DNA of 64,000 nucleotides from Squalus acanthias. Lineage: Eukaryota. The position numbers were made by a program, and so were the translations under genes. Shown here in pieces: positions 3,721 through 32,281 of the stretch (the stretch's first letter is position 1; every line of letters begins with the position of its first letter). The stretch covers positions 48,856,001 through 48,920,000 of the forward strand of contig CM059447.1 in NCBI GenBank assembly GCA_030390025.1, written 5' to 3'. The notes beneath the pieces were generated by a model. The model saw only the letters and a list, made by a program, of their open reading frames with translations, made no database searches and was not told the origin of the DNA.

Positions 3721-4189
3721 CTGAACAAGCAGTGGTTTACTTATCCTAGTTCAGTGTGAATCACTACTGTACTCTGGGGAAGAACACGGTTTCCCAATCT
3801 TTTATTTCAGAAATATAACGGACGTGAACAAAACCTTTCAAGAAATAAGCAAAATTAATATCACGTTAATCAATCTGTCCCGTTTACTTAATTAGCCTCA
3901 GTAAAAGGGTCAGAATGCACAGTACTCGGAATGGTGGGGCCTAGTTTTAATATACACTGAATGGAAACTGGCGACACAGCGCCCCTAGCGGCCAACATAA
4001 ATATCTACTAAAATCAAGAACTTCTTTCAGGGACCTGATGGCCAATTAGGAGGTAGGATGTTCGGACACATATTTATCATATCCAGCATCAGCAATCCTC
4101 TTCTCATTCAAAAAATCATGATGGCCTCTAATTACAAAATAACAATTGATCAATTCCAGGGATGAGGGACTTCAGTTACATGGATAGAA

Positions 4190-7190: not shown

Positions 7191-7880
7191 CAACTTTAAT
7201 CATCTTAAGCTCCTCAGTTTGAGATAGTTTAGGTGTTTGTTGAGAGTCTCTGTTGCTTTACATTGCAAGTTAAGTTACAGTTTCCACCTGCTGTGGATTC
7301 TTTCGTAAATCTGATAGAACCCATTCGAGTTCGCGTCTCTTTCCCGCCTTCTTTTTTGATGACATTTTCAACGCAACAAAATCCGCCGATGTGTCGAGTC
7401 TGGAAAACATATTAAAACAGAGAAATATATAGATATTTAAATCATGTTTATATCAGCTTACTCGTTCTCCATAGGGCACGATCTGGCTTACTGTTTATAG
7501 GCAAGAGTAGACTGCTATTAATCATAAATAATCTCAAATTAGAAACCAATAAGATTCTTTTTAAAATCAACAAATCCATTCAGACAACTGCACTGTTTGA
7601 TTGGTTCACATGTGGAACTAATCCAATCAGCCGTTTCGTCATGCGCCATCTTCCAGGAGAACTGTTTCCAGGGTCAAGGGGCATAGTTCCGAATAATGGC
7701 CCCAGGTTATTGATTTAAGAGAATGGAAGCCGCTGCTTTGGCGCCCCTACCGGCAAGCGAAGAGTTTGCGTGTGATTGGGACCTCAATGAAAAAGCTGTT
7801 TGCCTGCAAGGAGGGCCAAGCTCGTTGCTTAGTGGCGTAGACAGATAGCAACAGCGTCTCGTTATAGCACACAGAAACAT

Positions 7881-13569: not shown

Positions 13570-16500
13570 ATGTTAAAGGCAGCTTTTTCCCTGATCCTCA
13601 TTGTCCACGTGTTCTGGCCTTACGGTGAGTGAGACACGGTTCCAAGCTCCTAAATGGAATCAGCCAAAAACTGGAAACAATGGACTGTGTTTACTAAGGC
13701 GAAAATGTGACCGAGCTAACAGCTGATATTTTCGCCCCCTCCCTATCTCTGTGACCTCCTCCAGCTCTGCAACCCTCCGTGATCTCTGCGCTCCTCCCAT
13801 TTTGGCCTCTTGAACATCGCCCGATTTCCATCGCTCCATCATTGGTGGCCATGCCTTCAGTTGCCTGGGCCCTAAGCTCTGGAATTCCCTCCCTAAACCT
13901 CTCCGCCTCTCTCTCCTCCTTTAAGACGCTCCTTAGCACTTAGCTCTTTGACCCTGTCCTAATATCTCTTTCTGTGGCTCGGTGTCAAATTTGTGTAAAG
14001 CGCCTGGGGTCGTTTAGTTACATTAAAGGCGATGTATCAAAGAAAGTTGTTGTTGATAATGTTGGTTTACTTTCTGGTCCTTCTATAAGGCGAAGTAAAG
14101 GCAAACCAGAGAATGGATATAACAAGCAATAACTGAAGGCAATAATGATGCTGTTCTTAAATTACAGGCGAGGTGTTTCAACGCGGCTTCTTTCTATCGC
14201 TCAATAATCAGTTCTAATGTAACAATAATCCTTCTAGTTGCAGAATCCCAGCCCTTTCTGTCTCGGAGCCCCTTCACAGTTACAGCCGGAGTCGGCCAGT
14301 CGGTTGAATTGGAATGTCACCAGGTTCATGTAGTGGAATTGGTGAATAGCTATTTCTGGTACAAGCAGCGTGTGGGTGAAGCCCCGAGACTAATCGATAT
14401 CCCATCCTGTAATCGGACCGATTGCAAGTTTACTTCTAAAAGAGGACACACCAAATATATACTGATCCTGGAAATCCGCAATGTGCAGGTGGCTGACACC
14501 GGCTCCTATTACTGTGCTGATAGGGATGGCTATGCACCGCTCGGGAATGGATCCACACTGCTGGTTGGAGGTAAGAGCAAAACCAAATTGAATTCAGATC
14601 ATGCACAGCAATATCATTCGGTGTAAACTAAGAGTTAACTGTGTCCCAATCCCTGTCCAGACAGTTCCACACCCAAGACGGCTGTGCTGGTGTTTGCTCT
14701 GCCGGGGGAGCCGCATTTAAGGGACACCGTCCCCTTGGTGTGTTTGGTCACTGGCGTCTCCTCGAACCAGATTGCTCTTTACTGGAACGTTACCGGACAG
14801 GTGACCAAAGGACAGAGCGATTCCGGTACACTGAACCCGGACATGACCTACAGCATCAGAAGCCATGTGATGGTCTCGAGGGAAGCCTGGAGAAGCGGCG
14901 GGGTCTGCACCTGTATTGTTGAACTGGGTTCCAAGGACAAATCTTGGGCCAAGAGCGTGTCGCGCCCCAAAACAGTGACAGGTGAGTCGGTGATCTGTAT
15001 AGCGAAGGTCAGTATTCAGCTTTAGCGTCAGTCGGAGTAGTTCACTCGCTCCTAAGCGCCTGAAGTCTGTAAATAAAGCAACACCACGGGATGAGCATGA
15101 ATATCTATATATCAGGAGAATAGTGCGATCAGTCTGTTATAAAATACATTGAAACAAGCTACGGTTACCCTCCGTCCCAGGTCTTGTAAATACTTCCTCC
15201 GCTCTTGGCTGACTTTAGATTTCTGCGGGTCATTTTAGAATCAAAGAATGATACAGCACAGAAGGAGGCCATTCGGCCCATCGTGCCTGTGCCGGCTCTT
15301 TGAAAGAGCTCCCCAATTAATCCCACTCCTTCCCTGCTCTTTCCCCACAGCCCTTGCAAAATTTTCCCCTTCAAGTATTTATCCGATTCCCTTTTGAAAG
15401 TTATTCGTGAATCAGCTTCCACCGCCCTTTCAGGCAGCGCATCCTGGAATGGATTGGAGTGAACGCGCTTTCTGACCTGAAACTGGTCAAGAGATGCGGT
15501 GAAATAGTTGGCTGAACGCGTCTGCTGGGATCAGACGCTCACTCATTTCCACCCGTTTATTTTCTCGTTTCCCGTTTTAAAGACCCGAACCCCCCTTATC
15601 GATCCCCACTTTCCCCATGAAATATATTTTCATGTAATCGGATTATGAAGCTTCACTGAAATTGGGTAATTGTTCCAATTTATCACTCATAAAACATGGC
15701 GGGTGTATGAGCATAAATCTTTGAAGGTGGCAGGACAAGTCGAGAAGACTGTTAAAAAAACATATGGACTCTTTGGCTTTATTAATAGAGGATTAGAGTA
15801 CAGAAGCAAGGAAGTTATGCTAAACCTTTATAAAGCAATGGTTGGGCCACAGCTGGAGTATTGTGTCTAATTCTGGGCACCACACTTTAGGAAGGATGGA
15901 GAGAGAACATTTCGCACAATGGTCCCAGGGATGAGGGACTTCAGTTATTGGGAGAGACTGGAGAAGCTGGGATTGTTCTCCTTAGAGCAGAGAAGGTTAA
16001 GAGGAGATTTAATAGAAGTGTAAAATCATGAATCATGAAGGGTTCTGATAGAATAAATAAGGAGAAATTTTTCCCATTGGCAGAAGGGTCGGGAACCAGA
16101 GGACACAGATTTAAGGTGATTGGCAAAAGAACCAGAGGGGAGATGAGGAAACAATTTTTTACGCAGCGAGTTGTTGTGACCTGGAATGCGCTGCCTGAAA
16201 GGGCAGTGGGAGCAGGTTCAATAGTAACTTTCAAAAGAGAATTGGATAAATACTTGAAGGGATAACATTAACAGGGCTATGGGAAAAGAGAAGGGGAGTG
16301 GGTCTAATTCGGTAGCTCCACCAATGAGCCGGCACAGCCACGATGGGTTCCTTCTGTGCTCTAACCATTCTATGATTCAGTTTTCAAATAGGATGTTTTG
16401 ATTGTGCATTATTAAAATTATGGGGCAATACTGAGAGTGCCGTCTGTCAATTTGCCTCAACCACCAAACTAGTGCAATTTATTCCATTAATAGCTTTCAC

Positions 16501-19500
16501 TTGTCCAATATGCGTCGCATTGACTGGTTTGTCCTGTCACACCCCGGGTTTGATGCTCCTTCATTGTAACTGGTTCACGTTTCTCATCAGAGAATCCCAG
16601 AAAGTAATGGCTTGACCCAGCAGCATTTTCTAAGTGTTTCTCTCTGTAGGGTGGTGCATTCTGACCCTTCCCTTTGCCATAACTGTCTCGGTGATCCTGG
16701 TTCTGGTATTGATCTTCATTTCCATTTGGAATCATAAAAGCGGCAGATCAGGTGAGAATTTACGTTTTTCAGGAATATTTGAATAAATGTTTGTTTAATG
16801 TGATTCCCTTCTCGAAGCGTTAAATACTAATTACAGTTAATTGTTTCAGAAGAACGAGTCAACAGACCCCACAATGAAAGGTGAGTAACTGAACCATTTA
16901 CAAAGTCCATCAGTAACAATCTCACTGTATTTAACACATGTGTCAAAATACAGTTAACCCCAACTCCAATTTCAATATTTTCCACGTTCTTTTAAGATTG
17001 ATTCAAGGTCCATTCCACAATTCTGTTCTCAATATTTATGGCATGTGACCAAGGATTTACAAGAAGTAATGCTTGTTTAATATTTTTGTTTGCATACAGT
17101 TTTAGTTTGAGAGAGAGAACGAAAAGAGCGGGAAGAAATGAGCAACACTCGGGTGAGTTGGATTGCAATGTTGGTGCAGATAGAACATCAATTATGGGAT
17201 ATTTCAAAGATCAATAAGTGCATTTCCCGCCATCAAACTGTCCTGCCCTCGTGCTCCTGTCTGCCGGACTCACAGAAAGGCTAATTATTGGTTATTAATG
17301 CTGACAATTATGTATCAGATGGACAATAGACGCCAGACACCGGGGGTGGATCATCCATGTCCATCCATTGGCATATGGGGGTACCATTGGCGTATTGGGG
17401 TACCATTGGTGCATTAGAGTACCCTTGGCATATTGGGGGTTCATTGGCTTATTGAGATATTATTGAGATATTATTGGTGGACCATTGACACATTGGGGTA
17501 CCATTGGCATATTGGGGGATAATTGGCATAATGAGGGACCATTGATGTATTGGAGCACCATTGGGTCATTGATGGACAATTGGCGTATTGGGCTGTAATT
17601 GGCGTATTGGGGGATCATTGGCTTATTGGGGTACCATTGGCGTATTGGTGGACCATTGTCGTATTGGTGGACCATTGGCATTTTGGGGTACCATTGGCAT
17701 ATTGGTGGACCATTGTCGTATTGGGGTACCATTGGCATATTAGTGGACCACTGGCGTATTAGGGGACCATTGGTGCATGGTGCCTCTGTAATTAATTATA
17801 GATTAGCCAGAATTGAGAATGTTTAAATTCATATTCTTAACTGTTGATACACAGGTGACACCCGTCAAATGGAGGCGAAGCGGACACATCAGGGTGCAAT
17901 ACATGTAAGTAAGTTCATTGAACCTGTTGCAATAATATACAGGAACTTGGTGATTTCTGGGATGGGTGCAATGCGCCACATGCGGGATATTTCACACAGT
18001 TGGCATTGAGCAGGTCATAGATCAGATCATCTTAATTTGCAGCGAATCCCACTCGTTGCTCCAACTGGAAACAGAACATATCCCGCAGCCCTCTTCCCAT
18101 GTGATAATAGAAAGGAGAGGTTAATGTTCCGGGTAGAATGCCTTCACCAGACTTTACTGCGGACTTCCAGCAGTTTCAGGTTCTATTTCAGATTTCCAGC
18201 TTTTTGCTATTTTCTATTCTTTTTATCTCTACATTGAGTCCATGTCCACTCCCCCCACAAACCCCCGGCCCCTCCCATCCGGCGGAAATATTGTTTTTAA
18301 TATATTAGCACAGTTATTATTATGAAGATTCTGAAATAAGACGACACCCAGAATAGTTTCACAGATAAGTCAAAATATATTTCTATGATAAGTCGTCAAA
18401 GAAGGAATCAGTTTGGAGAGAATGTGATTGTGTGTGTGAGAGTGTGAGTATGTGTGTGTGTGTGAGAGTGTGTGTGTGAGTGTAAGTGTGTGTGAGTGTG
18501 AGTGTGTGAGTGTGAGTGAGTGAGTGTGAGTGTGAGTGAATGTCTGAGAGGGTGAGTGTGCGAGTATGTGCGTGTGTGTGTTTGTGAATGTGTAAGTGAG
18601 TGTGCGTGCATGTGATTGTCAGCCGTGGCTCAGTGGGTAGCACTCTCGCCTCTGAGTCAGAAGGTCATTGGTTCAAGTCCCACTCCAGAGACTTGAGCCC
18701 ATAATCCAGGCCGACACTCCCAGTGCAGTACTGAGGGAGCGCTGCACTGTCGGAGGGGCAGTACTGAGGGAGCGTTGTACTGTCGGAGGGGCAGCACTGA
18801 GGGAGCGCCGCAATGTCGGAGGGGCATTACTGAGGGAGTGCCGCACTGTCGGAGGGGTAGTACTGAAGGAGTGCCGCACTGTCGGAGGGGCAGTACTGAA
18901 GGAGCTCTGCACTGTCGGAGGGCAGTACTGAGGGAGCGCTGCACTGTCGGAGGGGCAGTACTGAGGGAGCACCGTACTGTCGGAGGGGCAGTACTGAGGG
19001 AGCGTTGCACTGTCGGAGGGGCAGTACTGAGGGAGCGTTGCACTGTCAGAGGTGCCGTCTTTCAGATGAGATGTTAAACTGAGGCCCCGTCTGCCCTCTC
19101 AGGTGGACTTAAATGAACTCACGCCACTATCTCGAAGAAGAGCATAGGAGAGTTCTCCCTGGGGTCCTGGGCCAATGTTTGTCCCTCAACCAACATCACT
19201 AAAAAATAGATTATCTGATCATTATCACATGGCTGTTTGTGGAAACTTGCTGTGCGCAGATTGGCTGCCGTGTTTCCTACATTACAACAGTAACTACACT
19301 TCAAAAGTACTTCATTGGCTGTGAAGCGCTTTGGGACGTCCTGAGAACGTGAAAGATGCTGTAGAAATGCAAGTCTTATCTTTTATGATGTGTGATTGAG
19401 TGTGTGTGTGATTCTGTCTTGGTGTGATTGATTGTATGTGTGTGAGAGTGATTGAGTGTCTGTGTGTGTGATTCTGTCTTGGTGTGATTGATTGTTGTGT

Positions 19501-20275
19501 GTCTGAGTGTTTGAGTGTCTGTGTGTGTGTGATTATGTCTGGGTATGATTGAGTGTCTGTGTGTGTGATTCTGTCTTGGTGTGATTGATTGTTGTGTGTC
19601 TGAGTGTTTGAGTGTCTGTGTGTGTGTGATTATGTCTGGGTATGATTGAGTGTCTGTGTGTGTGTGATTATGTCTGGGTATGATTGATCAATGTAACCTT
19701 GCAGATGGCGCATGGCGAAACATGGCCGTCTGATTGGATTGTTTTGATGTGTCTATCCTATCAAACAGATAGACTCATCATCCCAGTTTTCTGATTAAAT
19801 GTTGGTGATTTCTGGGTTAATCTGCTTTACGAGTTGTGCTCCTCTGTGTGTTAAAACATTAATTCAGACAGTTCTTGTGTGGACATATTAAGCAAAAGAT
19901 TCTCAAATTTATAAAGAGGATGGTGGAAGCAGATTCAATGCTTAATTTCAAAAGCGAATTGGATAAATACTCGAAGGATAAAAATGTGCAGGGCTGTGGG
20001 GAAAAGCAGGGAGAGTGGGACTAATCGGAGAGCTCTTTCAAAGAGCCGGCACAGGGACGATGGGCCGAACGGCCTCCTTCTGTGCTGCATCATTCTCTGA
20101 TTCCATGAACGCGACTGCAGGACGAGATAGCTTGACCTGCCTTTAAATATCTTGAAATGTCAATGTTTAATATATTTTCCTGTCTCAGGGCGGCCCTCGA
20201 GACCAGCCTCTTTACGCCTCTCTGCAATTTGCTGCCTCGGAAAAGTCATCAAAAAAGAAGGCGGGTCGCAGATGA
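13570..20275 (+). CDS. Gene A: non-rearranging antigen-receptor-like IgSF membrane protein (leader-VJ-C1-TM-cytoplasmic ITIM-like), 343 aa
   Basis: Exons 13570-13624 (MLKAAFSLILIVHVFWPY), 14238-14570 (VJ), 14661-14981 (C1), 16650-16751 (TM), 16850-16880, 17100-17152, 17855-17904, 20189-20275 (GGPRDQPLYASLQFAASEKSSKKKAGRR*). All introns are GT-AG with matching phases (1,1,1,1,2,1,0) and there is no internal stop. In-frame alternative acceptors at 14244 and 17106 are possible. AATAAA at 20609-20619. Confidence 0.85.
14238..14570 (+). CDS. Gene A exon 2: V-set Ig domain with fused J-like G strand
   Basis: VELEC (B-strand Cys), WYKQRVGEAPRL (C-strand Trp), DTGSYYC (F strand) and LGNGSTLLVG (GxG J-like), all in one exon; phase-1 boundaries. 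Confidence 0.93.
14661..14981 (+). CDS. Gene A exon 3: C1-type Ig constant domain
   Basis: VPLVCLVTG..W..PDMTYSIRSHVMVSREAWRSGGVCTC resembles the IgL/TCR C1 pattern (LxCLV, TYSxxSxL, WxSGxxYxC); acceptor cag at 14658-14660 and donor gtgagt at 14982. Confidence 0.9.
16650..16751 (+). CDS. Gene A exon 4: transmembrane exon with membrane-proximal Cys
   Basis: ctgtag|GWCILTLPFAITVSVILVLVLIFISIWNHKSGRS|gtgaga; hydrophobic run without a charged residue. Confidence 0.85.
17365..17772. repeat. ~19-20 bp minisatellite (ccattggcRtattggggta) in gene A intron 6
   Basis: About 20 degenerate tandem units. Confidence 0.85.
18415..18615. repeat. (GT/GA)n compound microsatellite
   Basis: Direct inspection. 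Similar tracts lie at 2437-2510 (CT), 8325-8500 (CA) and 19390-19690 (TG-rich). Confidence 0.9.
18620..19383 (+). mobile_element. Full-length Deu-domain SINE with a ~10-unit 33-bp array (gene A intron 7)
   Basis: A-box-like head gccgtggctcagtgggtag, B-box, array, body and tail. Confidence 0.85.
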
Positions 20276-20608
20276 GAGCCCGAAGGGTTTCTATCCGATT
20301 AATGCGGGAGGAGACCGGACTTACAAAAGAACCCACAGCCTGCGGGGAATGAGAATAGAGCCACGGAGACTCCCGTCAAACATCTGAACTATCTGCCTGC
20401 ACTCGCCAGAGTTTGCAAAGACTCTTTCTATTCAATGTAAACGAACGTGCTTTGAGTATTGTAAAGATACTCCACTGCATTAGTGTAATTCAAGTGTGAG
20501 ACAAACATTAAGAGCAGGGACTTCTCGGTTTGGTGTTTCTCTGAACCTTTCCTGCTCATCCTGCAGCTCCAGTTAGTAACAAGATTTTTATTTGCAAATG
20601 CTTGTGTA

Positions 20609-20619
20609 AATAAAATAAA
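20609..20619 (+). terminator. Overlapping AATAAA polyadenylation signals for gene A
   Basis: aataaaataaa about 335 nt after the stop codon. Confidence 0.65.
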
Positions 20620-23534
20620 TTATTCTTCGAATGTAAAGATGCACGAGAGGTTCCTATCGATCAATACTTCACTTATAATTAAATGTGATCAGGATAAAAC
20701 TTGAATGACTATTGAGCTGACAATATCGGTCCTGAATTGAGATACTGTTAGTGGCGATATCCTCTGTCTGAGAAGCGAGATACTTAATCATTTACAGACT
20801 AAGATGACAACAGGAGAGAATCGCGGGCAGAGATGTGGGGATTTGTGCCTGGTTCCATTTTACCTTTGGGGTAGTGTGTTTTGCTATGTGTAGTAATGTC
20901 AAAACTACATGTCAGAGACAGATGGTGAGTGTAGCGTGGCTTGTGAGGAATGGGTGACTTTGGACCTGTGGTTTCCTAAAACTCTCCACCACTGGAGCTT
21001 TGCTCACGTCAGGTCTGGGTCTCTTGTAGACTCGTGGGTAGGGATGGATTGCCATGACAACCCCATTATCATTGTATCATGCGACTACCAGGATGGTAGA
21101 AGGTGAACTCGGTGGACCTTGGCCTCTTCTCGTCTAGCAATTCCTATGTTCAAGATCCCAGGTATGCACAGTATTGGGAGAGAATATTCAACCAGAGACA
21201 GGATTGCATCATAGGTGGTTATATTGCTTTATCCATCAGAGTCAGATCAGTCTAAGTATTCCCCTTCTGATTAGATTTGAAATCAGCATGTACAACCGGA
21301 TGAGATTCAGGAGCAACACAAAAAGTTCTTGGCAAAGACCCTTTCAAATCCATCTCCCAGAAACTGTCCAATAAATTACATGAGGATTTGAATAAATTCC
21401 TCACAACCGTATTCTTGTTAATGTTGATTTACATTATATTATAGGGTTCTGTAACGCGGATCGAAATTCACCAGGACGATACCGGGGCAAAAAGGGTTAA
21501 ATTATGAGGACAGGTTGCACAGACTCGGCTTGTATTCTCTTGAATATAGAAGATTAAGGAGGTGGTCCAATTGAGGTGTTTAAGATGATTAAAGGAGTTA
21601 ATAGGGCAGATAGTGAGAAACTATTTCTCTGGTGGGGAGCGTCCAGAACAAGGGGGGAATCAGCTTCAAATTAGAGCCAGGCCGTTCAGGGGCGATGTCA
21701 GAAAGCACTTCTTCACACAAAGGGTAGTGGAAATCTGGAACTCTCTCATCCAAAAAGCTGTTGAGGCTGGGGGTCAATTGAAATTTTCAACACGGGATTG
21801 ATAGATTTTTGTTGGGTAAGGGTATTAAGGGTTACGGAACCAAGGTGGGTAAATGGAGTTAAGATACAGATCAGCCGTGATCTAATTGAATGGCGGAACG
21901 TGCTCGAGGGGCTGAATGGCCTCCTCCTGTTCCAATGTTCCTGTCGCCAGTAGGATAATTAGTTCGGACTACTAAAAGGCAAATTGAAGACTGATTTCTG
22001 GAGGTTCATCACACAAGGAGTGATCAGCACATGGAATGGTCCTCTGGGTAGGGCGGTGTTAATGAAAACCCCTGGAGTCATTTAGGAAACAGTTTGACTG
22101 CCCTGATGGGCCAGAAGGTCAGAACCTTTCTGGATTCCTGAGCTAAGTTTGGTAGAAAGGCCTTTTTCACCTGCAGTGATCTTGTGACAAGTGTCTCCAA
22201 ATACTCTTTGCAATATCTGTGCAGAATATTTTGACAGCAGAATATCGTTAATTTCGGCAAGTTTCTATCCCCTCGGGACATGAATTACAAGAGCTTCTCG
22301 ATGAGATCGGCGAACTCGGTGGACCTTGGCCTTTTCTCGTCTAGCGAATCCTAAGTTCAAGCTCCCAGGTTTGCACGGTATTGGGGAGAGAATATTAAGC
22401 CAGAGACAGGATTGCACCATCGGTGGTTATTTCCCTTCTCTGATTTGTAATTGAGAATAAAGTAACAGGCAGTATGGACCGGAAACGTGAAATTCTACAG
22501 AGAGCGCTGCAGTGTTTCACCCTCAACCAATGAAAGTGATGTTGTACATCCCCCAAAGGGAAATTTCCGCAGTAATCCATTCCCTACAGTAGAGGTTCCT
22601 CTGGAATGTGCAGATCGGGACGTTTCTTAACTCCATCTTTTTTTTATTCGTTCATGGGATGTGGGCGTCGCTGGCAAGGCCAGCATTTATTGCCCATCCC
22701 TAATTGTCCTCGAGAAGGTGGTGGTGAGCCGCCTTCTTGAACCGCTGCAGTCCGTGTGGTGAATGTACTCCGACAGTGCTGTTAGGGAGGGAGTTACAGG
22801 ATTTTGACACAGCTACGATGAAGGAACGGCCCGATATATTTCCAAGTCAGGATGGTGTGTGTGACTCGGAGGGCAACTTGGAGGTGGTGGTGTTCCCATG
22901 CGCCTGCTGCCCTTGTCCTTCTAGGTGGTGGATTTCGCGGGTTAGGGAAGTGCTGCCAAAGAAGCCTTGGCGAGTTGGTGCAGTGCATCTACCCACCTTG
23001 GTTCCATATCCCTTAAAACCCTTGCCTAACAAAAATCTAACCACCTCACTTGTGACATATTCAATTGACCCCCAGCCTCAACTATTTTTTTTTGGTGGGG
23101 GGAGAGTTCCAGAATTCCACCACCCTTTGTGTGAAGAAGTGCTTCCTGACATCACCCCTGAACGGCGTGTCTCTAATTTTAAGTTGTTGTCCCCCTTGTT
23201 CTGGACTAGCCCCACCCCACCCCCCACCCCACCCCACCCCCACCAGAGGAAATATTTGCTCTCTCTCCACCCTATCAACTCCTTGAAGCATCTTAAACTC
23301 ATCAGTTAGATCACCCCCTAATCTTCGATATTCAAGGGGATTCAAGCCTGGTCTATGCAAACTGTCCTCATAATTTAAACCTTTTAGCCCCTGTAAAAGT
23401 ATCTGGTTAATTCTTATACGAGGTGAAGCTGGAGGCCTGATTGTATTGTACACTGGAAATTGCTCCACCTCTGAGTTGCAAGTATATTTCCCTACTGTAA
23501 ATAAATGGAACTATCTGTGTGTTGGATAAAATTT

Positions 23535-24308
23535 AGAAACATAGAAACATACAAAAATAGGAGCAGGAGTCGGCCGTTCGGCCATTCGAGCCTGCTCCGC
23601 CATTCAATATGATCATGGCTGATCCTCTATCTCAATACCATATTCCAGCTCTCTCCCCATACCCCTTGATGCCTTTTGTGTCTAGAAATCTATCTATCTC
23701 CTTCTTAAATATATTCAGTGACTTGGCCTCCACAGCCCTCTGTGGTAGAGAATTCCACAGGTTCATCGCCCTCTGAGTGAAGAAATTTCTCCTCATCTCA
23801 GTCCTAAATGTCCTACCCCGTATCGTGAGACTGTGACCCCTCGTTCTAGACCCCCCCCCCCTCCCCCCGCCCAGCCAGGGGACCTCCCTGCATCCAGTCT
23901 GTCTAGCCCTGTCAGAATTTTATGCGTTTCAATGAGATCCCCTCTCATTCTTCTAAACTCTAGTGAATACAGGTCTAGTCGACCCAATCTCTTCTCATAC
24001 GACAGTCCTGCCATCCCAGGAATCAGTCTGGTGAACCTTCACTGCACTGGCTCTATGGCAAGTATATCCTTTCTTAGGTAAGGAGACCAAAACTGCACAC
24101 AGTACTCCAGGTGTGGTCTCATCAAGGCCCTGTATAACTGTGTAAGACATCTTTGCTCCTGTACTCACTTCCTCTTGCAATGAAGGCTAACATACCATTT
24201 GCCTTCCTAACTGTTTGCTGCACCTGCATGTTTGCTTTCAGTGACTGGTTTACAAGGACACCCAGGTCCCTTTGTACATCAACATTTCCCAATCTAGCAC
24301 CATTTAAA
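23535..24308 (-). mobile_element. CR1 3' fragment between the converging 3' ends
   Basis: RT C-terminus plus tail; other LINE pieces occupy 21460-21945 and 22640-23395. Confidence 0.85.
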
Positions 24309-24745
24309 TTACAAAAAGATATTTTACAACATTTCCATTGCTACAAGTAAAGGAAGACGTGTATTTATATAGCACCGCACACGACCTCGGGACGTCGCGA
24401 AGCGCTTTACAGCCAATGAAGTACTTTTGAAGTGTAGTCACTGTTGTAATGTAGGGAGACGCAGCCGCCAATTTGCGCGCAGCAAGATCCCACAAACACA
24501 CACTTCAGCAAAAAGTGCTTCATTGGCTGTAAAGCGCTTTGGGACGTCCTGATGTCGTGAAAGGCGCTGTAGAAAGGCAATTCTCTCTTCTAACAGTTAA
24601 GCAGAATATGAATTTTTCCGATAATTGTCCCTTTAGCAACTGTTATTATCTATTTAAAAAAAAACGGTTCTCTGCTGTGGTGTCTCTCGGTATGATAAAG
24701 AACACATTCTAAATCTGCATGAGATTATAAAGAAAATATAATTGC

Positions 24746-24751
24746 TTTATT
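24746..24751 (-). terminator. AATAAA polyadenylation signal for gene B
   Basis: tttatt on the + strand, about 170 nt after the stop codon. Confidence 0.65.
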
Positions 24752-24920
24752 GAAACGGTAATAAAGATGTTTTAAAAATCATTAATCACATCTACAGGCA
24801 GAGTACAATCACACTGGGAGCTAAGGAATAATTACCGCCCAGTAATTTGAAGAGTCACTGAACACAGGCTGTAATTGATGATGCGGTGAGTGAAGCTTTA
24901 TATCTAAAGGTCTTCCATTC

Positions 24921-24968
24921 TCATGACGATGTGTAATCCGCACCAAACGCCAGGCGCGCGTACAGAAT
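24921..24968 (-). CDS. Gene B terminal exon carrying a canonical ITIM (ILYARL)
   Basis: ctccctcacag|ATT CTG TAC GCG CGC CTG; matches (I/V/L/S)xYxx(L/V); phase 0 fits the preceding exon. Confidence 0.85.
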   Translation of the reverse strand: MLYARLAFGADYTSS

Positions 24969-27900
24969 CTGTGAGGGAGCAACATGAGAATACAATTCAC
25001 AGAATCATAGAATCATAGAATGGTTACAGCACGGAAGAAGGCCATTCAGCCCGTCGAACCCGTGCCGAATCTCAGCTAGTCCCACTCCCCCGCCCTTTCC
25101 CCGTAGTCCTGCAATTTTTTTTCCTTCAGGTACTTATCCAGCTCTCTTTTGAAAGATAAGATTGAATCTGCCTCCACCACCCTCTCAGGCAGCGCATTCC
25201 AGATCCGAACCACTCGCTGCGTAAAAAAGTTTATTCTTACGTCGCCTTTGGTTCTTTTGCCAATCACCTTAAATCTGTGTCCTCTGGTTCTCGACCCTTC
25301 TGCCAATGGGATCAGTTTCTCTCTAACTACTCTGTCCGGACCCCTCATGATTTTGAACACCTCTATCAAATCTCCTCTCAATCTTCTCTGCTCCAAGGAG
25401 AACAACCCCAGCTTCTCTAGTCTATCCACATAACTGAAGTCCCTCATCCCTGGAATCATTCTCATAAATCTTTTCTGCACCCTCTCTGAGGCCTTCACAT
25501 CCTTCCTAAAGTGCGGTGCTCAGAATTGGACACAGTACTCCAGTTGTGGCCGAAACAGTGTTTTCTACAGTTTCATCATAATTTCCACACTTTTGTACTC
25601 TATACCTCGATTTATGAAGCCCAGGATCCCGTATGCTTTTTTAACTGCTTTCTCAACATGCCCTGCCACCTTCAACGATTTGTGCACATATACCCCCAGG
25701 TCTCTCAGTTCGTGCACCCCCTTTAGGATTGTACCATTTAGTTTATATTTCCTCCACCAGCCTGTTTATGTCCTCTTGAAGTCTATCACTCTCCGCCTCA
25801 CTGTTCACTATACTTCCAAGTTTTGTATCATCTGCAGATTTTGAAATTGTGCCCTGTACACCCACTTCCAAGTCATTAATATATTTCTTCACCCTCCTGC
25901 TCAACTTTATTCTGAGTCAGTATAAGTTTGAATCAAAATGGGAACAACGGGTCTCCCGCCTGAGCGTCTTTAGATTAATTTAAAAACAGGAAACACGAAT
26001 TTAAGAAAAGTTTATGCATTTCCCCTTTTGAATATAATTTCAATTTTACTGATTACAGTGTAAGAATTAATTCAGAAAGATCAGTAATGGGCACCACCCT
26101 CCCTATCTCTGTAACCTCCTCCAGCCCTACAACCCTCCGAGATCTCCGCGCTCCTCCAGTTCTGGCCTCTTGCACATCCCCCGATTTTAATCACTCCACT
26201 ATTGGCGGCCTCGCCTTTAGCTGCCTGGGCCCCAAGCTCTAGAATTCCCTCTCCGCCTCTCTCTCCTCCTTTAAGACGCTCCTTAAAACCGACGTCTTTG
26301 ACCAAGCTTTTGGTCACCTGTCCTCCTTATGTGGCTCGCTGTCAAATATTCTCTAATTTACGCTCCTGTGAATCGCCTTGGGACATTAAAGGCGCTGTAT
26401 AGATACAAGTTGTTCTAAGCAATTCATTGCATGCGAATCGCTTTGGGTCGTTTCCGAGCCAGGCATAACGCGCTGTATTAATGCGAATCTCTCATTAAAG
26501 TAACCACCAACGGACATGTCCATGAATATCAATGAAACGCTTGATACCAGTATAGAATCTTACAGCACAGAAGGGGGCCATTCGGCCCGGCCTGCCTGTG
26601 CCGGCTCGTTGAAATCGCTACCCAATTAGTCCCACTCCTCCCGCTCTCTAATCAAAATAATACCGCTGAGATTCTTCACACCTACCTCGTTTTCTGGGTT
26701 CTTGATTCTTGAATCTGGACCTCGGTCAGTTGTGACTGGACTCTCTGATTTAAGGAGATGATTAGAGTTAAATGTGCAAACTTACACACCAAAGGGACAC
26801 TTTCAGCAAACGGCAAGAGACTCAACTTAGGTTTAGCTTCAGACAGGCAGTACCTGGTTTGCGGGTCTTGCAGCGCCGTCTCGCCGCGAGAATGACCATC
26901 CCCAGCACAAGAAGGGCCGCCGCCAGACTGACGTAAAGCGCGATGCGGCAGGTCGTGCTCCAGAGGGACACTGAACAACAAAGAAATAACTCTGATGAAA
27001 TGAACGAAACACAAACTAATAGCTTACCTTCAGTGACATTCTGAAACCTCGCCTACTGGGATTTGAAGACGTTTTTGCCAGAATCGTTAAACACAAGATG
27101 ATGTCCTGTTCCCTATATCTGCTAATGTAACACCATTATTTAAAAAGGGCAGTCGACAGAAGGCTGGTAACTATAGACCGGTTAGCCTAACATCTGTGGT
27201 AGGTAAAATTTTGGAGTCCATTATTAAGGAAACAGTAACAGGACATTTGGATAATCATAATTTAATAGGACAAAGTCAGCATGGTTTTACGAAGGGGAAG
27301 TCATGTTTGACAAATTTGCTGGAGTTCTTTGCGGAAGTAACATATAGAGTGGATAAAGGGGAACCAGTGGACGTAGTGTATTTAGACTTCCAAAAGGCAT
27401 TTGACAAGGTGCCACACAAAAGATTATTGCTTAAGGTAAAAAATCACGGGATTGGGGGTAATATTCTGGCATGGATAGAGGATTGGCTATCTAACAGAAA
27501 GCAAAGAGTTGGGATAAATGGTTCATTCTCAGACTGGCAATCAGTAACTAGTGGTGTTCCACAGGGGTCAGTGCTGGGTCCCCAACTCTTTACAATCTAT
27601 ATTAACGATTTGGAGGAAGGGACCAAGTGTAACATATCAAAATTTGCAGATGATACAAAGATGGGAGGGAAAGTAGTGAGTGAGGAGGACATAAAAAACC
27701 TGCAAGGGGACATAGACAGGCTAAGTAAGTGGGCAGAGATTTGGCAGATGGAATACAACACTGGAAAGTGTGAGGTGATGCACTTTGGCAGGAAAAATCC
27801 TAGAGCAATTTATTATCTTAATGGCAAGAAACTGGAGAGTACTGAAGTGCAAAGGGATCTGGGGGTCCTGGTGCACGAAACTCAAAAGGTTAGTATGCAG

Positions 27901-30900
27901 GTGCAGCAAGTGATTAAGAAGGCAAATGGAATGTTGGCTTTCATTGCTAGGGGGATAGAATATAAAAATAGGGAGGTATTGCTTCAATTGTACAAGGTAT
28001 TGGTGAGACCGCACCTGGAATACTGCATACAGTTTTGGTGTCCTTACTTAAGGAAAGACATCCTTGCTCTCGAGGCAGTGCAAAAAAGGTTCACTCGGTT
28101 AATCCCGGGGATGAGGGGGTGGTCATATGAGGAGAGGTTGGGTAGATTGGGACTCTACTCATTGGAGTTCAGAAGAATGAGAGGCGATCTTATTGAAACA
28201 TATAAGATTGTGAAGGGGTTGGATCGGGTGGATGCGGGGAGGATGTTCCCGATGACGGGTGAGACTAGAACTAGGGGACATAGTCTTAGAATAAGGGGCT
28301 GCTCTTTCAAAACTGAGATGAGGAGGAACTACTTCACTCAGAGGGTGGTAGGTCCATGGAATATGCTGCCACAAAAAGCTGTAGAAGCTACATCATTAAA
28401 TAAATTTAAAACAGAAATAGACAGTTTCCTAGAAGTAAAGGGCATTAAGGGTTACGGGGAGCAGGCAGGAATTTGGACATGAGTCTAGGTTCGGATCCGG
28501 TCATGGCCCTGTGGGTAGTGGAGCGGGCCCAGGGACTGTGTAGCCTGATTCTGCTCCTATTTCATGTGTGCAATTCTGTTAGATGCAGGAGATGGTTCTG
28601 TGATAGATAGTAGATTGGCGGTTAGGATCAGATCAGCCATGATCTTATTGAATGGCGGAGCAGGCTCGAGGGGCCGATTGGCCTACTCCTGCTCCTATTT
28701 CTTATGTTCTTATGTTCTTAATGCAAGTTGTTCCTGTTGTTGAGATCTCTGCGCTCCTCCAATTCTGGCCTCTTGCACAACCCCCGATTTCCATCGCTCC
28801 ACCATTGGCGGCCGTGCCTTCAGCTGCCTGGGCCCCGAGCTCTGGAATTACCTCCCCAAACCTCTCCGCCTCTCTCTCCTCCTTTAAGACACTCCTTAAA
28901 ACCGACCTCTTTGGCCAAGCATTTGGTCACCTGTCCTAATATCTCCTTATATAAACCCAAGTAAAGCATATGCTTTTTTAACCACCTTATCAACTTGCCC
29001 TGCCATCTTTAAGGATTTGTGTATATGGACATCAAAGTCTCTCTGTACATCGACACTTTCCAAACTCATGCCATTTGTAAAATACTGCCTTTCCATATTA
29101 GTGCTCCCAATATAGCCCGTATTGGAAGCGCAGTCGTTCGGGATGGATTTGGTTCTGGGCTGCTTATATCCAGTATCACTAGAGGAGAATAATAGGATGT
29201 AAACTCTGCTGCCCCGTATCCTAACTCACACCAAGTCCCGTTCACCCATCACCCCCTGTTGCTCGCTTACTTACATTGGCTCCCGGTCCAGCAACGCCTC
29301 GATTTTAAAATTCTCATCCTTGTTTTCAAATCCAAGGCCTCGCCCCCTCACTATCTCTGTAATCTCCTCCAGACCTACAACCCTCCAAGATCTCCGCGCT
29401 CCTCCAATTCTGGCCTCTTGCCCATCCCCCCGATTTCCATCGCTCCACCACTGGCGGCTGTGCCTTCAGCTGCCTGGGTCCTAAGCTCTGGAATTCCCTC
29501 CCTAAACCTCTCCGCCTCTCTCTCCTCCTTTAAGACGCTCCTTAAAACCGACCTCTTTGACCAATCTTTTGGTCACCTGTCCTAATATCTCCTTATGTGC
29601 CTCAGTGTCAAATTATTTGTTAATACTCCTGTGAAGCACCTTGGGACGTTTTACTACATTAAAGGCGCTATATAAATACAAGTTGTTGTTGTTGGTTGTT
29701 GGAGTACTGTGAGCAGTTGAATATTAAGGGAATCAAGGGATATGGAGAAAGTGCGGGACAGTGGAGATGAGGTAGAAGATCAGCCATGATCTTATTGAAT
29801 GGCGGAGCAGGCTCGAAGGACCAAATGGCCGACTCCCGCTCCTAATTCTTATGTTCTTATGTTCTTATGAAGCAGGGGAGATGTGCAGCGACTGATGGCG
29901 AGATAGTCAGGCTAGAAACATGGAGAAATAAATGCAGCAAATGGCCGGCCAAGGAAAAGAGATGTTAAAGTTTCCGTTAGAGCGCTCTAGTCTGGAGGTG
30001 CTTGCAGCATTGGCAACTTTGTAAAATTTTACTAAAGAGAGACAAAGTGTAGTTTAAGATATAAAGCAACAGTTCTGATGCAGCAGTTTAACACTATCAT
30101 TAACTCGTCTCAACTCCAGTTACCTCTCTCAGACGAGACACTTTCACTGATCAGATCCCCAGCCGAGTTGATTGGAACGGCGCAAGTACAGACGGCGCCG
30201 CTGCTCCAAGTTTCCGCCGAGACGCTGATGTGGCTTCTCACGGTGTAGCTCCCGTCCGGGTCCACCGTCCCGGAATCGCTGCGTCCCTCGGTAACCCGGC
30301 CCGAAACCGTCCAGCGGACGGGAAGGGATTCGGGAGACGCGCCTCTCACCAAACACATCAAGGGCACCCGTTCCGACCAGGAAATTTCATTTGGCGGTGG
30401 AGTTAAGAGAAATATATCCGGGGGACCCGCTAAATTCGGAAAATAAAACGGAGGCCGAATTAACAGTAAAACAAGACGCGTTTTAAGTGATGTATAAATG
30501 CACAATTGAGTGAAATAGTTGTGAAGATTACCTGTAATCACTAGCTTGGAGCCATTTCCGAATATTAGGGACTTAGTGTGGTTTGGCGCGGCACAGTAAT
30601 ACAGCCCAGAATCATTTCTCTGGACATTTGCAATGACCAGAGTATAATTACCCGATTTATTACATATCTCGCCGGAAAATCTTCCCTCTGGCCTTACGAA
30701 TTGGGCCACTTTGTAAACGAGCTTTAATTCCTCTCGGTGCCATTGTCTGTACCAGGATACAACGAGACGCTCCATCCTCCCCGTCTGGCATTGCAGTTTA
30801 ACAAGGCTCCCGACAGCAAGCGTCTGAACCGGCGGAGACTGGAACAAGACCGACTGAGACACAACAACTGAGAAGCAGACAAAAAATATTAACAACAAGT

Positions 30901-32281
30901 TGTGGGCCCGAAGCCAACCTCTGGCGGACCCACCTTGATACCGACAAATCCAAAAAAATCCATCTTAAGGAGCATGTCGGCTTCAAAGTTGCGGTGTTGT
31001 TATTGATTGAAATTTCCACTTTGCTGAATATTTTAGTTGCTTTATTAAAGTTAAAGTTGAATGTTAAATTGCACATAGAATCATACAGCACAGAAAGAGG
31101 CCATTCGGCCCATCCTGCCTGTGCCGGCTCTTTGAAAGACCTCTCCAATTAGTCCTATTCCCCCCTGCTCTTTCCCCATAGCCCTGTAACTTTTTTTTCC
31201 TTTTCAAGTAATTATCCAATTCCCCTTTTGAAAGTTACTATTGAATCTGCTTCCACCGCCCTTTCAGGCAGCGCATTCCAGATCACAACAACTCGCTGCG
31301 TAAAAAGATTCTCCTCATCTCCCCTCTGGTTCTTTTGCCAATTACCTTCAAACTCTTTCTTCTGGTTATCGACCCTCCGGCCAAGGGAGACAGTCTCTCA
31401 TTATTTACTCTATCAAAAACCTTCTCTTATTGACTCTTTCCAAACCCTTTTTCTTATTAACGCTACCAAAACCCTTCTCTCTCAAAAGGGGGCTTGACAG
31501 GTTAGGTGCTGAGCGGATGTTTCCCCTCGTGGGGGGATCTAGAACTAGGGGGCATAGTCTCAGGATAAGGGGTCGCCCATTTAAGACGGAGATGAGGAGG
31601 AATTTCTTCTCTCAGAGGGTGGTGAATCTTTGGAATTCTCTACCCCGGAGAGCTGTGGAGGCGGAGTCAGTGAATATATTCAAGGCTGAGATAGACAGAT
31701 CTTTGAGCTACAGGGGAGTCGAGGGGTATAGGGAGAGAGCGGGAAAGTGGAGTTGAGGCCAAGATCAGATCAGCCATGATCTTATTGAATGGCGGAGCAG
31801 GCTCGAGGGGCCGAATGGCCCACTCCTGCTCCTATTCCTTATGTTCTTATGTAACCCTTCTCCTTATTGACTCTATCTTAACTCTTCTCCTATTTACTCT
31901 ATCAAAGACTTCCTCTCGAAAATACTTCTTCACGCAAAGGGCGGTAGAAGTGTGGAACTCTCTCCCTCAAAAGGCAATAGATGCTCAATTAATCATTTTA
32001 AATCTGAGATTGATTGATATCTGTCAGCCAAGGGCACCAAGGGACATGGAGCCCAGGCGGGTGGATGAAGTCCGGATACAGGTCAGCCATGATCTCACTG
32101 AGTGGTGGGACAGGCTAGCCAAGTGTAATCTTTACTCTATCAATTCACTTCTCATTATGGACTCTGTCAAAACCCTTCTCCTTATTGACTCTCTCCAAAC
32201 CCTTCCCCGCTCTCTTAAAACATCGAAGGATATCTCACCTTGGAAGAGATGGCACAGCGTGCAGAGGCCGAAGAAGCTCAT
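24921..32281 (-). CDS. Gene B: non-rearranging antigen-receptor-like IgSF membrane protein (leader-VJ-C1-TM-cytoplasmic ITIM), 302 aa
   Basis: Exons 32281-32239 (MSFFGLCTLCHLFQ), 30867-30532 (VJ), 30429-30124 (C1), 26970-26854 (TM), 26744-26686, 24968-24921 (ILYARLAFGADYTSS*). All introns are GT-AG with phases 1,1,1,1,0 and there is no internal stop. Minus-strand AATAAA at 24746-24751. Confidence 0.87.
25001..25885 (-). mobile_element. CR1 3' fragment in the last intron of gene B
   Basis: ORF 25076-25498 (RGDLIEVFK, FFTQRVV). Confidence 0.85.
26854..26970 (-). CDS. Gene B exon 4: transmembrane exon
   Basis: ttcag|VSLWSTTCRIALYVSLAAALLVLGMVILAARRRCKTRKP|gtactg; extracellular Cys, hydrophobic helix, basic stop-transfer cluster. 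Confidence 0.87.
27115..28720 (+). mobile_element. Young 5'-truncated CR1 with an uninterrupted 428-aa RT ORF, antisense within gene B intron 3
   Basis: ORF 27196-28482 carries QHGF, LDFQKAFD, GVPQGSVLGP and FADD without stops; (TTCTTATG)n tail. Confidence 0.93.
29907..30031 (-). CDS. Candidate alternative terminal exon of gene B (GPI-signal-like tail)
   Basis: Strong acceptor tctctctttag 92 nt after the C-exon donor, in phase 1; encodes VKFYKVANAASTSRLERSNGNFNISFPWPAICCIYFSMFLA*. Confidence 0.4.
30124..30429 (-). CDS. Gene B exon 3: C1-type Ig constant domain
   Basis: PPDIFLLTPP, VPLMCLVRG, VRWTVSG, DGSYTVRSHISV, WSSGAVCTC; 35/62 ungapped identities with the gene A C-domain core (manual count). 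Confidence 0.92.
30532..30867 (-). CDS. Gene B exon 2: V-set Ig domain with canonical J motif FGNG
   Basis: QSVLFQSP, VKLQC, WYRQ, GRFSG, YTLVIANVQRNDSGLYYC, FGNGSKLVIT; very TCR/IgL-like, with V and J in one exon. Confidence 0.95.

Follow-up and report, generated by a model that had tools for sequence, protein, structure and literature searches.

Genes A and B, which face each other in a 64,000-nucleotide window of the Squalus acanthias genome (the window being the whole stretch of DNA analyzed here), encode two germline-fixed VJ-C1-TM chains that probably pair V-to-V and C1-to-C1, are predicted to be locked by a disulfide bond and would form a probably inhibitory receptor, likely of the PRARP type. 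The A:B dimer is supported because: i) a cysteine outside the membrane is deeply conserved and lies in matched register in the two chains; ii) the interface is complementary; iii) the two genes were duplicated together as a cassette; and iv) a complex model of a horn-shark A:B pair passes. The original prediction of a disulfide-linked, Fab-like heterodimer is partly supported on these grounds, but two of its arguments are not: the GxG bulge as applied to A, and the claim about adaptor coupling once it is carried beyond the window copies.

Layout of the two genes

The genes are convergent and each consists of a leader, a VJ in one exon, C1, TM and a tyrosine-containing tail. The exons, in window positions, are as follows.

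13570..13624, + strand: gene A leader exon (ATG, GT donor; orthologue models match)
14238..14570, + strand: gene A single-exon VJ (Pfam V-set 6e-11)
14661..14981, + strand: gene A C1 exon, CxC in F strand (Pfam C1-set 9e-10)
16650..16751, + strand: gene A stalk/TM exon, opened by GWCILTL (stalk Cys239, codon 16655-16657)
16850..16880, + strand: gene A tail exon 1 (AG/GT; joint in one contig; orthologue match)
17100..17152, + strand: gene A tail exon 2 (AG/GT, frame, orthologue match)
17855..17904, + strand: gene A tail exon 3 (AG/GT; contig piece 17852-17905 in run X2)
20189..20275, + strand: gene A last coding exon, ITIM-like PLYASL (ILYASL in most paralogues)
24921..24968, - strand: gene B last coding exon, ITIM ILYARL (orthologue match)
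26686..26744, - strand: gene B tail exon 1 (other B1 copies stop here)
26854..26970, - strand: gene B stalk/TM exon, containing STTCRIAL (stalk Cys236, codon 26950-26948)
30124..30429, - strand: gene B C1 exon, CxC in F strand (Pfam C1-set 9e-12)
30532..30867, - strand: gene B single-exon VJ, Leu at the IMGT-50-like site, FGNG (Pfam V-set 1e-14)
32239..32281, - strand: gene B leader exon (orthologue match)

V-set and C1-set domains are both above the Pfam cut-off in A and in B, giving each chain a V-C1-TM architecture. The V and the J-like strand lie within one exon in both genes (joined VJ), and no RSS-like site was matched within the window, hence no sign of rearrangement. The VJ of A has an extra Cys pair in the C' loop, Pro at the IMGT-50-like site and Leu in place of the J-Phe. 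The C1 domains of both chains went unnamed in the original prediction, and the V exons (14238-14570; 30867-30532) fall outside 16650..26970, the range to which the pair had been assigned.

Splicing was checked against sequencing runs whose RNA status is guessed, none being recorded as RNA. A single A-type contig of low depth from one such run joins the end of C1 to the TM exon and then to tail exon 1; an extra hinge exon between C1 and TM is unsupported for A, since this contig joins the two directly. For B, no splice junction was found in four guessed-RNA contig sets compared with the whole 19 kb; repeats swamped the matches, leaving an uninformative blank. To the right of B, a Pfam scan of 150 of the 232 open frames yielded nothing but RT fragments, one frame resembling Myb/SANT and a gene of the PAQR/HlyIII type. 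The genes have no shared promoter because they lie tail-to-tail, which counts against the A:B reading.

The stalk cysteine and the predicted A:B interface

As originally claimed, each chain has one Cys just outside the TM, in GWCILTL (A) and STTCRIAL (B). The best hydrophobic window begins one residue past the Cys in A (with 21- and 23-residue windows) and two past it in B. The Cys is extracellular because the topology runs leader, V, C1, Cys, TM, basic residues, and by the same reasoning its palmitoylation is ruled out. Counted from the Cys, the first basic residue beyond the TM lies at a median of 27 residues in A and 25 in B, so that the registers match. A connecting-peptide Cys of the inter-chain type, a feature of TCR chains, is present in both A and B.

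Conservation of this residue is complete in every set: 23 of 23 A and 25 of 25 B TM exons found in the Squalus acanthias genome, all 65 TM-bearing homologues (including lungfish, amphibians and turtles), and 35 of 35 A-type and 30 of 30 B-type aligned proteins, these being related and not independent sequences. The background Cys frequency in A/B ectodomains is 0.14-0.22%, equivalent to a chance of about 2.5-4% per 18-residue stalk, and the ten B stalk columns preceding the Cys are only 17-67% conserved. That the chains are monomeric or on different cells, the Cys making no inter-chain bond, is very unlikely. In window A the hydrophobic stretch follows directly on the Cys, which might therefore lie at the surface of the membrane, but polar residues come after the Cys in most A orthologues, which places it in the stalk, and an unpaired extracellular Cys kept from sharks to turtles would be hard to explain. 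An extra F-strand Cys, retained in each C1, might also suit monomers, but it is absent from the modeled interface.

The complex model was made with horn-shark orthologues (P0012:P0004), which are 72% (A) and 61% (B) identical to the window chains and identical at 41 of 48 and 26 of 46 interface residues. It predicts a Fab-like dimer with both stalk Cys in the interface at an ipSAE of 0.82, the best of three controls reaching 0.00; the runs have 86% or more of their contacts in common, and partner pLDDT is at least 82. The pass mark was reached by 51 of 78 solved and 2 of 108 mismatched microbial pairs, and by 71 of 105 solved and 2 of 126 mismatched eukaryotic pairs; antibodies and their close relatives lie outside this calibration, and the pass may reflect likeness to solved Fabs or TCRs. 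The model covers A:B only and gives no ranking of A:B against A:A or B:B.

The predicted interfaces involve GFC for V-V and ABED for C1-C1, with A Pro68 modeled on B Phe118 and A Phe141 on B Leu136. At three contact sites the aligned A proteins hold Pro (29/35), Leu (26/35) and Phe (28/35), and B proteins hold the opposite residues, Leu/Met (28/30), Phe (26/30) and Leu (29/30). Taken together, interface residues show no greater conservation than the other positions (p 0.24, 0.28). By Fab numbering, the B interface residues resemble those of a heavy chain.

Two V-domain motifs had also been put forward for both chains. The WYxQ motif is present as WYKQ in A and WYRQ in B. The GxG bulge of the G strand is present in the window copies (LGNG in A, FGNG in B) but fails as a family feature of A, its first G being G in only 2 of 35 orthologues and 12 of 23 paralogues; because it is not conserved across the family, the argument from GxG to V-V pairing fails for A.

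It is possible, though on the whole unlikely, that A and B mainly form disulfide homodimers of the CD8aa or CD28 kind, or pair indiscriminately with themselves and with each other, and work as separate receptors whose co-duplication is incidental. One stalk Cys per chain in a similar register suffices for a homodimer; each chain has its own tyrosine motif; losses within the pairs are not significantly coupled; and the C1 domains of A and B, at 47% identity, hardly differ in their D/E strands, which would permit homodimers. Chicken PRARP, moreover, reportedly occurs as a monomer plus disulfide-linked homo- or heterodimers. Against this stand the opposite residues at the three contact sites, kept across 35 and 30 proteins, the near one-to-one pairing through about 20 duplications, and the passing A:B model.

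Cassette duplication, loops and putative signaling forms

Tail-to-tail orientation toward a B locus is found at 21 of 23 A loci, and A and B were copied together about 20 times with near one-to-one pairing retained. Distances in A correlate with those in B (Mantel r 0.68, p 1e-4, 18 pairs); joint loss (co-pseudogenization) of A/B pairs is not significant (8/4/2/7, p 0.08). In several further elasmobranch assemblies, too, A and B lie on one contig. Scattered between the pairs are IgL genes, with a joined VJ and a C that ends in a terminal Cys, one of them just left of the window; the array's third class of C1 had raised the suspicion of MHC but proved to be Ig light chain.

Such a co-amplified, germline-joined IgL ending in a free Cys could be a third chain to which the stalk Cys joins A or B. 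Its interleaved position and the heavy-chain likeness of the B interface residues would fit, but the span from F-strand Cys to terminal Cys is 20 residues in IgL, the corresponding spans in A and B being 25 and 27, and the Cys is kept in both A and B, which fit each other in the model. We consider this most improbable and retain the A:B pair. The B C1 is 33% identical to the neighboring IgL C, and 47% to the A C1.

A- and B-like proteins with the stalk Cys occur in sturgeon, lungfish, amphibians and reptiles. In a tree with one outgroup, which cannot place A/B relative to Ig/TCR, shark A is joined by the bony A-like proteins (86/79) and shark B by the bony B-like ones (81/53), in both cases with weak support. 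The best PDB sequence matches of A/B are Ig heavy and light chains, and protein atlas matches carry automatic Ig names only.

Neither window TM has a central charge, as had been stated. The corollary that adaptor coupling is unlikely holds for the two window copies but not family-wide: a TM Arg is found in 8 of 40 A homologues, 7 of these 8 lacking a tyrosine motif, and in B1 the four remaining copies that include a TM exon all carry a TM Arg and a stop ahead of the ITIM. The TCR-type combination of a TM Lys/Arg for CD3 and a short tail is absent from the window copies, whose TMs are uncharged and whose tails bear tyrosine motifs. The B motif ILYARL is canonical; A PLYASL is non-canonical at -2, and ILYASL is present in 10 of 15 A paralogue last exons found. 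These sequence signatures suggest that copies with a TM Arg/Lys and no tyrosine motif are activating forms. Window B and locus L029 are a near-identical pair with identical V and C exons and opposite signaling signatures, and offer a direct test of paired-receptor function.

Paralogue variation gathers in the CDR-like loops (A p 0.00025; B2 p 0.05). A clean selection reading is weakened because pN is below pS in the B2 loops (0.098 vs 0.14) and above it in the A C1 (0.039 vs 0.026).

In the proposed receptor, A and B would be co-expressed in one leukocyte and join V to V and C1 to C1 in the manner of a Fab or TCR, as modeled, with a predicted Cys239-Cys236 disulfide locking the dimer. The six loops of A:B would bind a ligand, and the tyrosine motifs would recruit a SHP-type phosphatase and deliver an inhibitory signal; the TM Arg/Lys copies without the motif would be activating counterparts via FcR-gamma. 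More tentatively, sharks may have a multigene germline repertoire of such Fab-shaped receptors, which differ in their loops, come in paired inhibitory and activating versions and were amplified along with IgL: a living RAG-free two-chain V-C1 receptor, implying that a six-loop heterodimeric site is possible, and may already have been present, prior to rearrangement. For the question of how two-chain antigen receptors arose, the non-rearranging shark candidates are UrIg and UrIg2, both homodimers. If the proposal is true, this intact, non-rearranging V-C1/V-C1 heterodimer would come nearer than any other natural model to a pre-RAG TCR or Fab, and could be expressed, crystallized and screened for ligands.

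Comparison with known receptors

The closest known family is PRARP, with the Xenopus VJC1 genes (Ohta et al. 2019), and A and B are likely members. V-C1 is said to be the architecture in non-avian species, and the family is said to have an ITIM/ITSM tail and disulfide-linked dimers at the cell surface, which for A:B are predicted. If A and B are PRARP, the heterodimer idea is not new at the family level because the chicken protein is said to heterodimerize. A/B share with PRARP/VJC1 the joined single-exon VJ, V-C1-TM and the ITIM-like tail, and likewise come as a pair of genes; they differ in being elasmobranch, in a full C1 in both chains, in about 20 cassettes interleaved with IgL, and in loop-focused diversity and copies with an activating signature. 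By its title, as cited in PMC10751288, Fu 2019 (J Immunol 202:1992) concerns a pair of non-rearranging joined-VJ IgSF genes, and passages of PMC10751288 and PMC11599192 place PRARP among joined-VJ genes. No database match of A/B is named PRARP. The supplements of PMC10751288 and PMC12227049 contain no PRARP, VJC1 or PAQR6; those of the Fu and Ohta papers may include shark members. No description of the shark A/B pair was found in the non-subscription literature searched.

TCR alpha/beta and Fab resemble A/B in their V-C1 chains, connecting-peptide Cys, split leader and the V-V and C1-C1 interfaces predicted for A:B. Unlike them, A/B have a single VJ exon rather than RSS-flanked V and J segments, no RSS-like site in the window, no TM charge for CD3 and long tyrosine-motif tails. 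CD8 alpha and beta are adjacent genes with a stalk Cys, the V domain standing on a long stalk, but lack the ITIM and the C1 that A/B have. UrIg and UrIg2 are likewise elasmobranch, with a non-rearranging single-exon VJ followed by C1, but are described in part of PMC12227049 as homodimers with 3 to 11 C domains, the V-V pairing of UrIg2 not being Fv-like; A/B have one C1 rather than three or more, a TM and an ITIM. Among paired receptors (LILR, PIR, Xenopus XFL), those that inhibit combine a TM free of charges with a tyrosine tail, and short-tailed members with an NxxR-TM bind FcR-gamma (PMC2413239). LILR and XFL differ from A/B in being single-chain receptors with other Ig domain types. The window A and B, with uncharged TMs and tyrosine tails, resemble the inhibitory members.

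Two convergent receptor genes and their neighbours

Genes A and B are convergent, tail-to-tail, with AG/GT exon ends and open frames:

13570-20275, + strand: gene A, 8 coding exons, 343 aa
32281-24921, - strand: gene B, 6 coding exons, 302 aa

Each encodes a leader, a one-exon VJ, a C1 domain, a stalk-transmembrane (TM) segment and a tyrosine-motif tail, and Pfam V-set and C1-set matches exceed the cut-offs in both. The gene models agree with those in databases for horn shark and others, and the closest named proteins to the window sequence come from sharks and rays. The promoter region is not common to A and B. In one 200-base contig (depth 2.3), from a run whose RNA origin is a guess, an A-type C1 end runs into the TM exon and the TM exon into the next exon; this support is for A-type splicing, no B joint having been seen and the B joints being predicted. 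Since the C1 end is joined straight to the TM exon, that A-type transcript has no hinge exon. The 102-base B V-C1 intron (30430-30531, - strand) is in frame and stop-free, so its retention would add 34 residues.

In both C1 domains (14661-14981 and 30124-30429) a further Cys precedes the F-strand Cys by two residues; it is almost invariant among elasmobranchs. The V domain of A has an extra Cys pair, and that of B1, the class of B copies including window B, one extra Cys. Two orphan remnants, at 7308-7380 (-) and about 3890-3930 (-), resemble the last exon of A (78%) and the beginning of its TM exon; they look like traces of an older inverted copy.

A PAQR/HlyIII-family gene, presumably PAQR6-like, lies 5-7 kb right of the window (flank L003:5031-7378) and might serve as a synteny marker for human 1q22. 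Just left are germline-joined Ig light-chain (IgL) genes (flanks L001:5836-9645 and L002:6725-7102), which we take to be type I/sigma-2-like. Many IgL copies, several broken, occur on contig G000:C3553 of the same genome, head-to-head with A and interleaved with A/B pairs. Sharks are known to have germline-joined IgL genes (available text of PMC4279169).

Conservation of the stalk cysteine

The membrane-proximal Cys noted earlier for each chain is present: A Cys239 (16655-16657) and B Cys236 (26950-26948), the hydrophobic stretch beginning 1-2 residues later. A further 22 A and 25 B loci, mostly on C3553, were taken in (one partial A on C3349 is outside the count). The Cys is kept in 23/23 A and 25/25 B TM exons found in this genome, one B locus having no TM exon in its stretch; A copies are 89-100% alike, and the count is weak alone because the copies are recent. 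Of 80 database homologues, 65 have a TM (14 lack it, 1 is unresolved) and all 65 have the Cys. It is also present in 35/35 A-type and 30/30 B-type proteins in alignments extended to sturgeon, paddlefish, lungfish, amphibians and turtles. Background chance would give 2.5-4% per stalk, and the ten B columns preceding the Cys are merely 17-67% conserved. The stalk Cys pair is a real, deeply conserved feature. The median distance from Cys to the first basic residue after the TM is similar in A (27 residues) and B (25), so the two Cys could meet. Linkage to a third chain, e.g. a neighbouring IgL, seems very improbable. Five database isoform models (P0009, P0014, P0037, P0074, P0075) skip the TM exon with the tail kept, possibly giving secreted forms without the stalk Cys.

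Pairing of A with B

An A:B heterodimer is likely. The modelled pair was P0012:P0004, the horn-shark orthologues, 72% and 61% identical to window A and B (41/48 and 26/46 at the interface). It scored 0.82 in three runs against 0.00 for the best control, with contacts agreeing at least 86% between runs and partner pLDDT of at least 82. The score mark was reached by 51/78 solved versus 2/108 mismatched microbial pairs, and by 71/105 versus 2/126 eukaryotic pairs; this calibration leaves out antibodies, scoring covered A:B pairing alone, and a passing score could stem from resemblance to Fab and TCR structures already solved. Both stalk Cys fall inside the confident interface and the geometry is Fab-like, with A Pro68 on B Phe118 and Tyr105, and A Phe141 on B Leu136. 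The Fab-like combining site originally proposed is a likely but unproven assembly of predicted geometry.

Three contact sites differ consistently: i) Pro in 29/35 A, Leu or Met in 28/30 B; ii) Leu in 26/35 A, Phe in 26/30 B; and iii) Phe in 28/35 A, Leu in 29/30 B. This asymmetry resembles the light/heavy pattern of Fabs. Homodimers, or a mixture of homo- and heterodimers, are rather unlikely: the asymmetry and the passing A:B model argue against them, although asymmetric residues do not forbid homodimers and A and B have nearly identical C1 D/E strands. Conservation at the interface does not exceed that of the remaining residues (p 0.24, 0.28).

The GxG bulge described for both V domains is kept across B (FGxG, G in 28/30). 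In A the first position is G in only 2/35 orthologues and 12/23 paralogues, and Leu replaces the J-Phe in 26/35; given this rarity among orthologues, window A's GNG is not a family trait.

A B locus or what remains of one lies opposite 21 of the 23 A loci. DNA distances among A copies correlate with those among the neighbouring B2 copies, another class of B (r 0.68, p 1e-4, 18 pairs, one remnant and two B1 pairs left out); this demonstrates duplication of the cassette rather than binding. Several further elasmobranch assemblies likewise have A and B on one contig. Ectodomain and TM exons are intact in only 13/23 A and 10/26 B loci. Joint partner loss falls short of significance, with both partners intact in 8 pairs, both broken in 7 and a mixed state in 6 (p 0.08), which weighs against pairing. 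That A and B are monomers is improbable. CDR-like loops concentrate variation among intact paralogues (A, 11 genes, p 0.00025; B2, 6 genes, p 0.05). In A loops, DE loop included, pN is 0.119 versus pS 0.041; an excess of amino-acid change is absent from the B2 loops and mild in the C1 of A.

Putative signalling forms and relatives

On balance we favour a two-chain receptor. One leukocyte would co-express A and B, which would assemble V-V and C1-C1 and be locked by the stalk disulfide; six germline loops would bind a putative ligand, the tyrosine motifs of both chains would recruit phosphatases, and copies with a TM charge and no tail would signal through FcR-gamma.

The TMs, described earlier as uncharged, are so in the two window copies; elsewhere TM Arg or Lys occurs. 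TM Arg is found in 8/40 A and 0/29 B homologues. The tyrosine motif is missing in 7/8 A homologues with TM Arg versus 6/32 others (p 0.0006, from predicted models and isoforms that are not independent). Four of the eight have NxxR, a motif linked to FcR-gamma binding (available text of PMC2413239). In this genome, all four remaining B1 copies in which a TM exon is present carry an Arg at the seventh residue past the Cys, and a stop precedes their ITIM. The ectodomains of three are broken; the fourth is near-identical to window B:

L029:6565-6906 versus window 26660-26990: B copy with TM Arg and stop before the ITIM

Over 9.1 kb, L029 and window B are 99.6% identical, their V and C exons wholly so, and by sequence L029 is an allele or very recent copy of window B. 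Of 32 differences, 19 lie within 500 bases around the TM exon. The clustered differences, some of which recur in other B1 copies, suggest that gene conversion took place and that L029 is an activating allele or paralogue. TM Lys occurs in the TM exons of A copies L019, L023, L024 and L025; in L024 and L025 His replaces the motif Tyr and both ectodomains are damaged.

A/B would likely work as a TCR or Fab arm does, yet is neither: no RSS-like site was found within the window, and CD3-type TM charges are absent from window A/B. PRARP, set beside A/B by description only and from partial sources, is the closest family. Fu 2019 reportedly described chicken PRARP as forming monomers and disulfide homo- or heterodimers; the family has ITIM/ITSM tails, with V-C1 in non-avian members. 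PRARP work probably anticipated the A:B heterodimer idea; what sets A/B apart is the shark expansion, the predicted intact two-domain Fab-like fit and the putative paired signalling forms. A description of the shark pair was not found in the literature searched, subscription papers aside. PRARP is given as a joined-VJ gene in the accessible parts of PMC10751288 and PMC11599192. Identity with UrIg or UrIg2 was rejected by comparison with the available part of PMC12227049.

A tree weakly groups bony A-like proteins with shark A (86/79) and bony B-like with shark B (81/53), consistent with an old A/B pair. A third, related V-C1-TM clade occurs in lungfish, coelacanth, sturgeon and gar (P0143, P0149, P0158, P0177, P0192 and relatives), with the stalk Cys partly kept.
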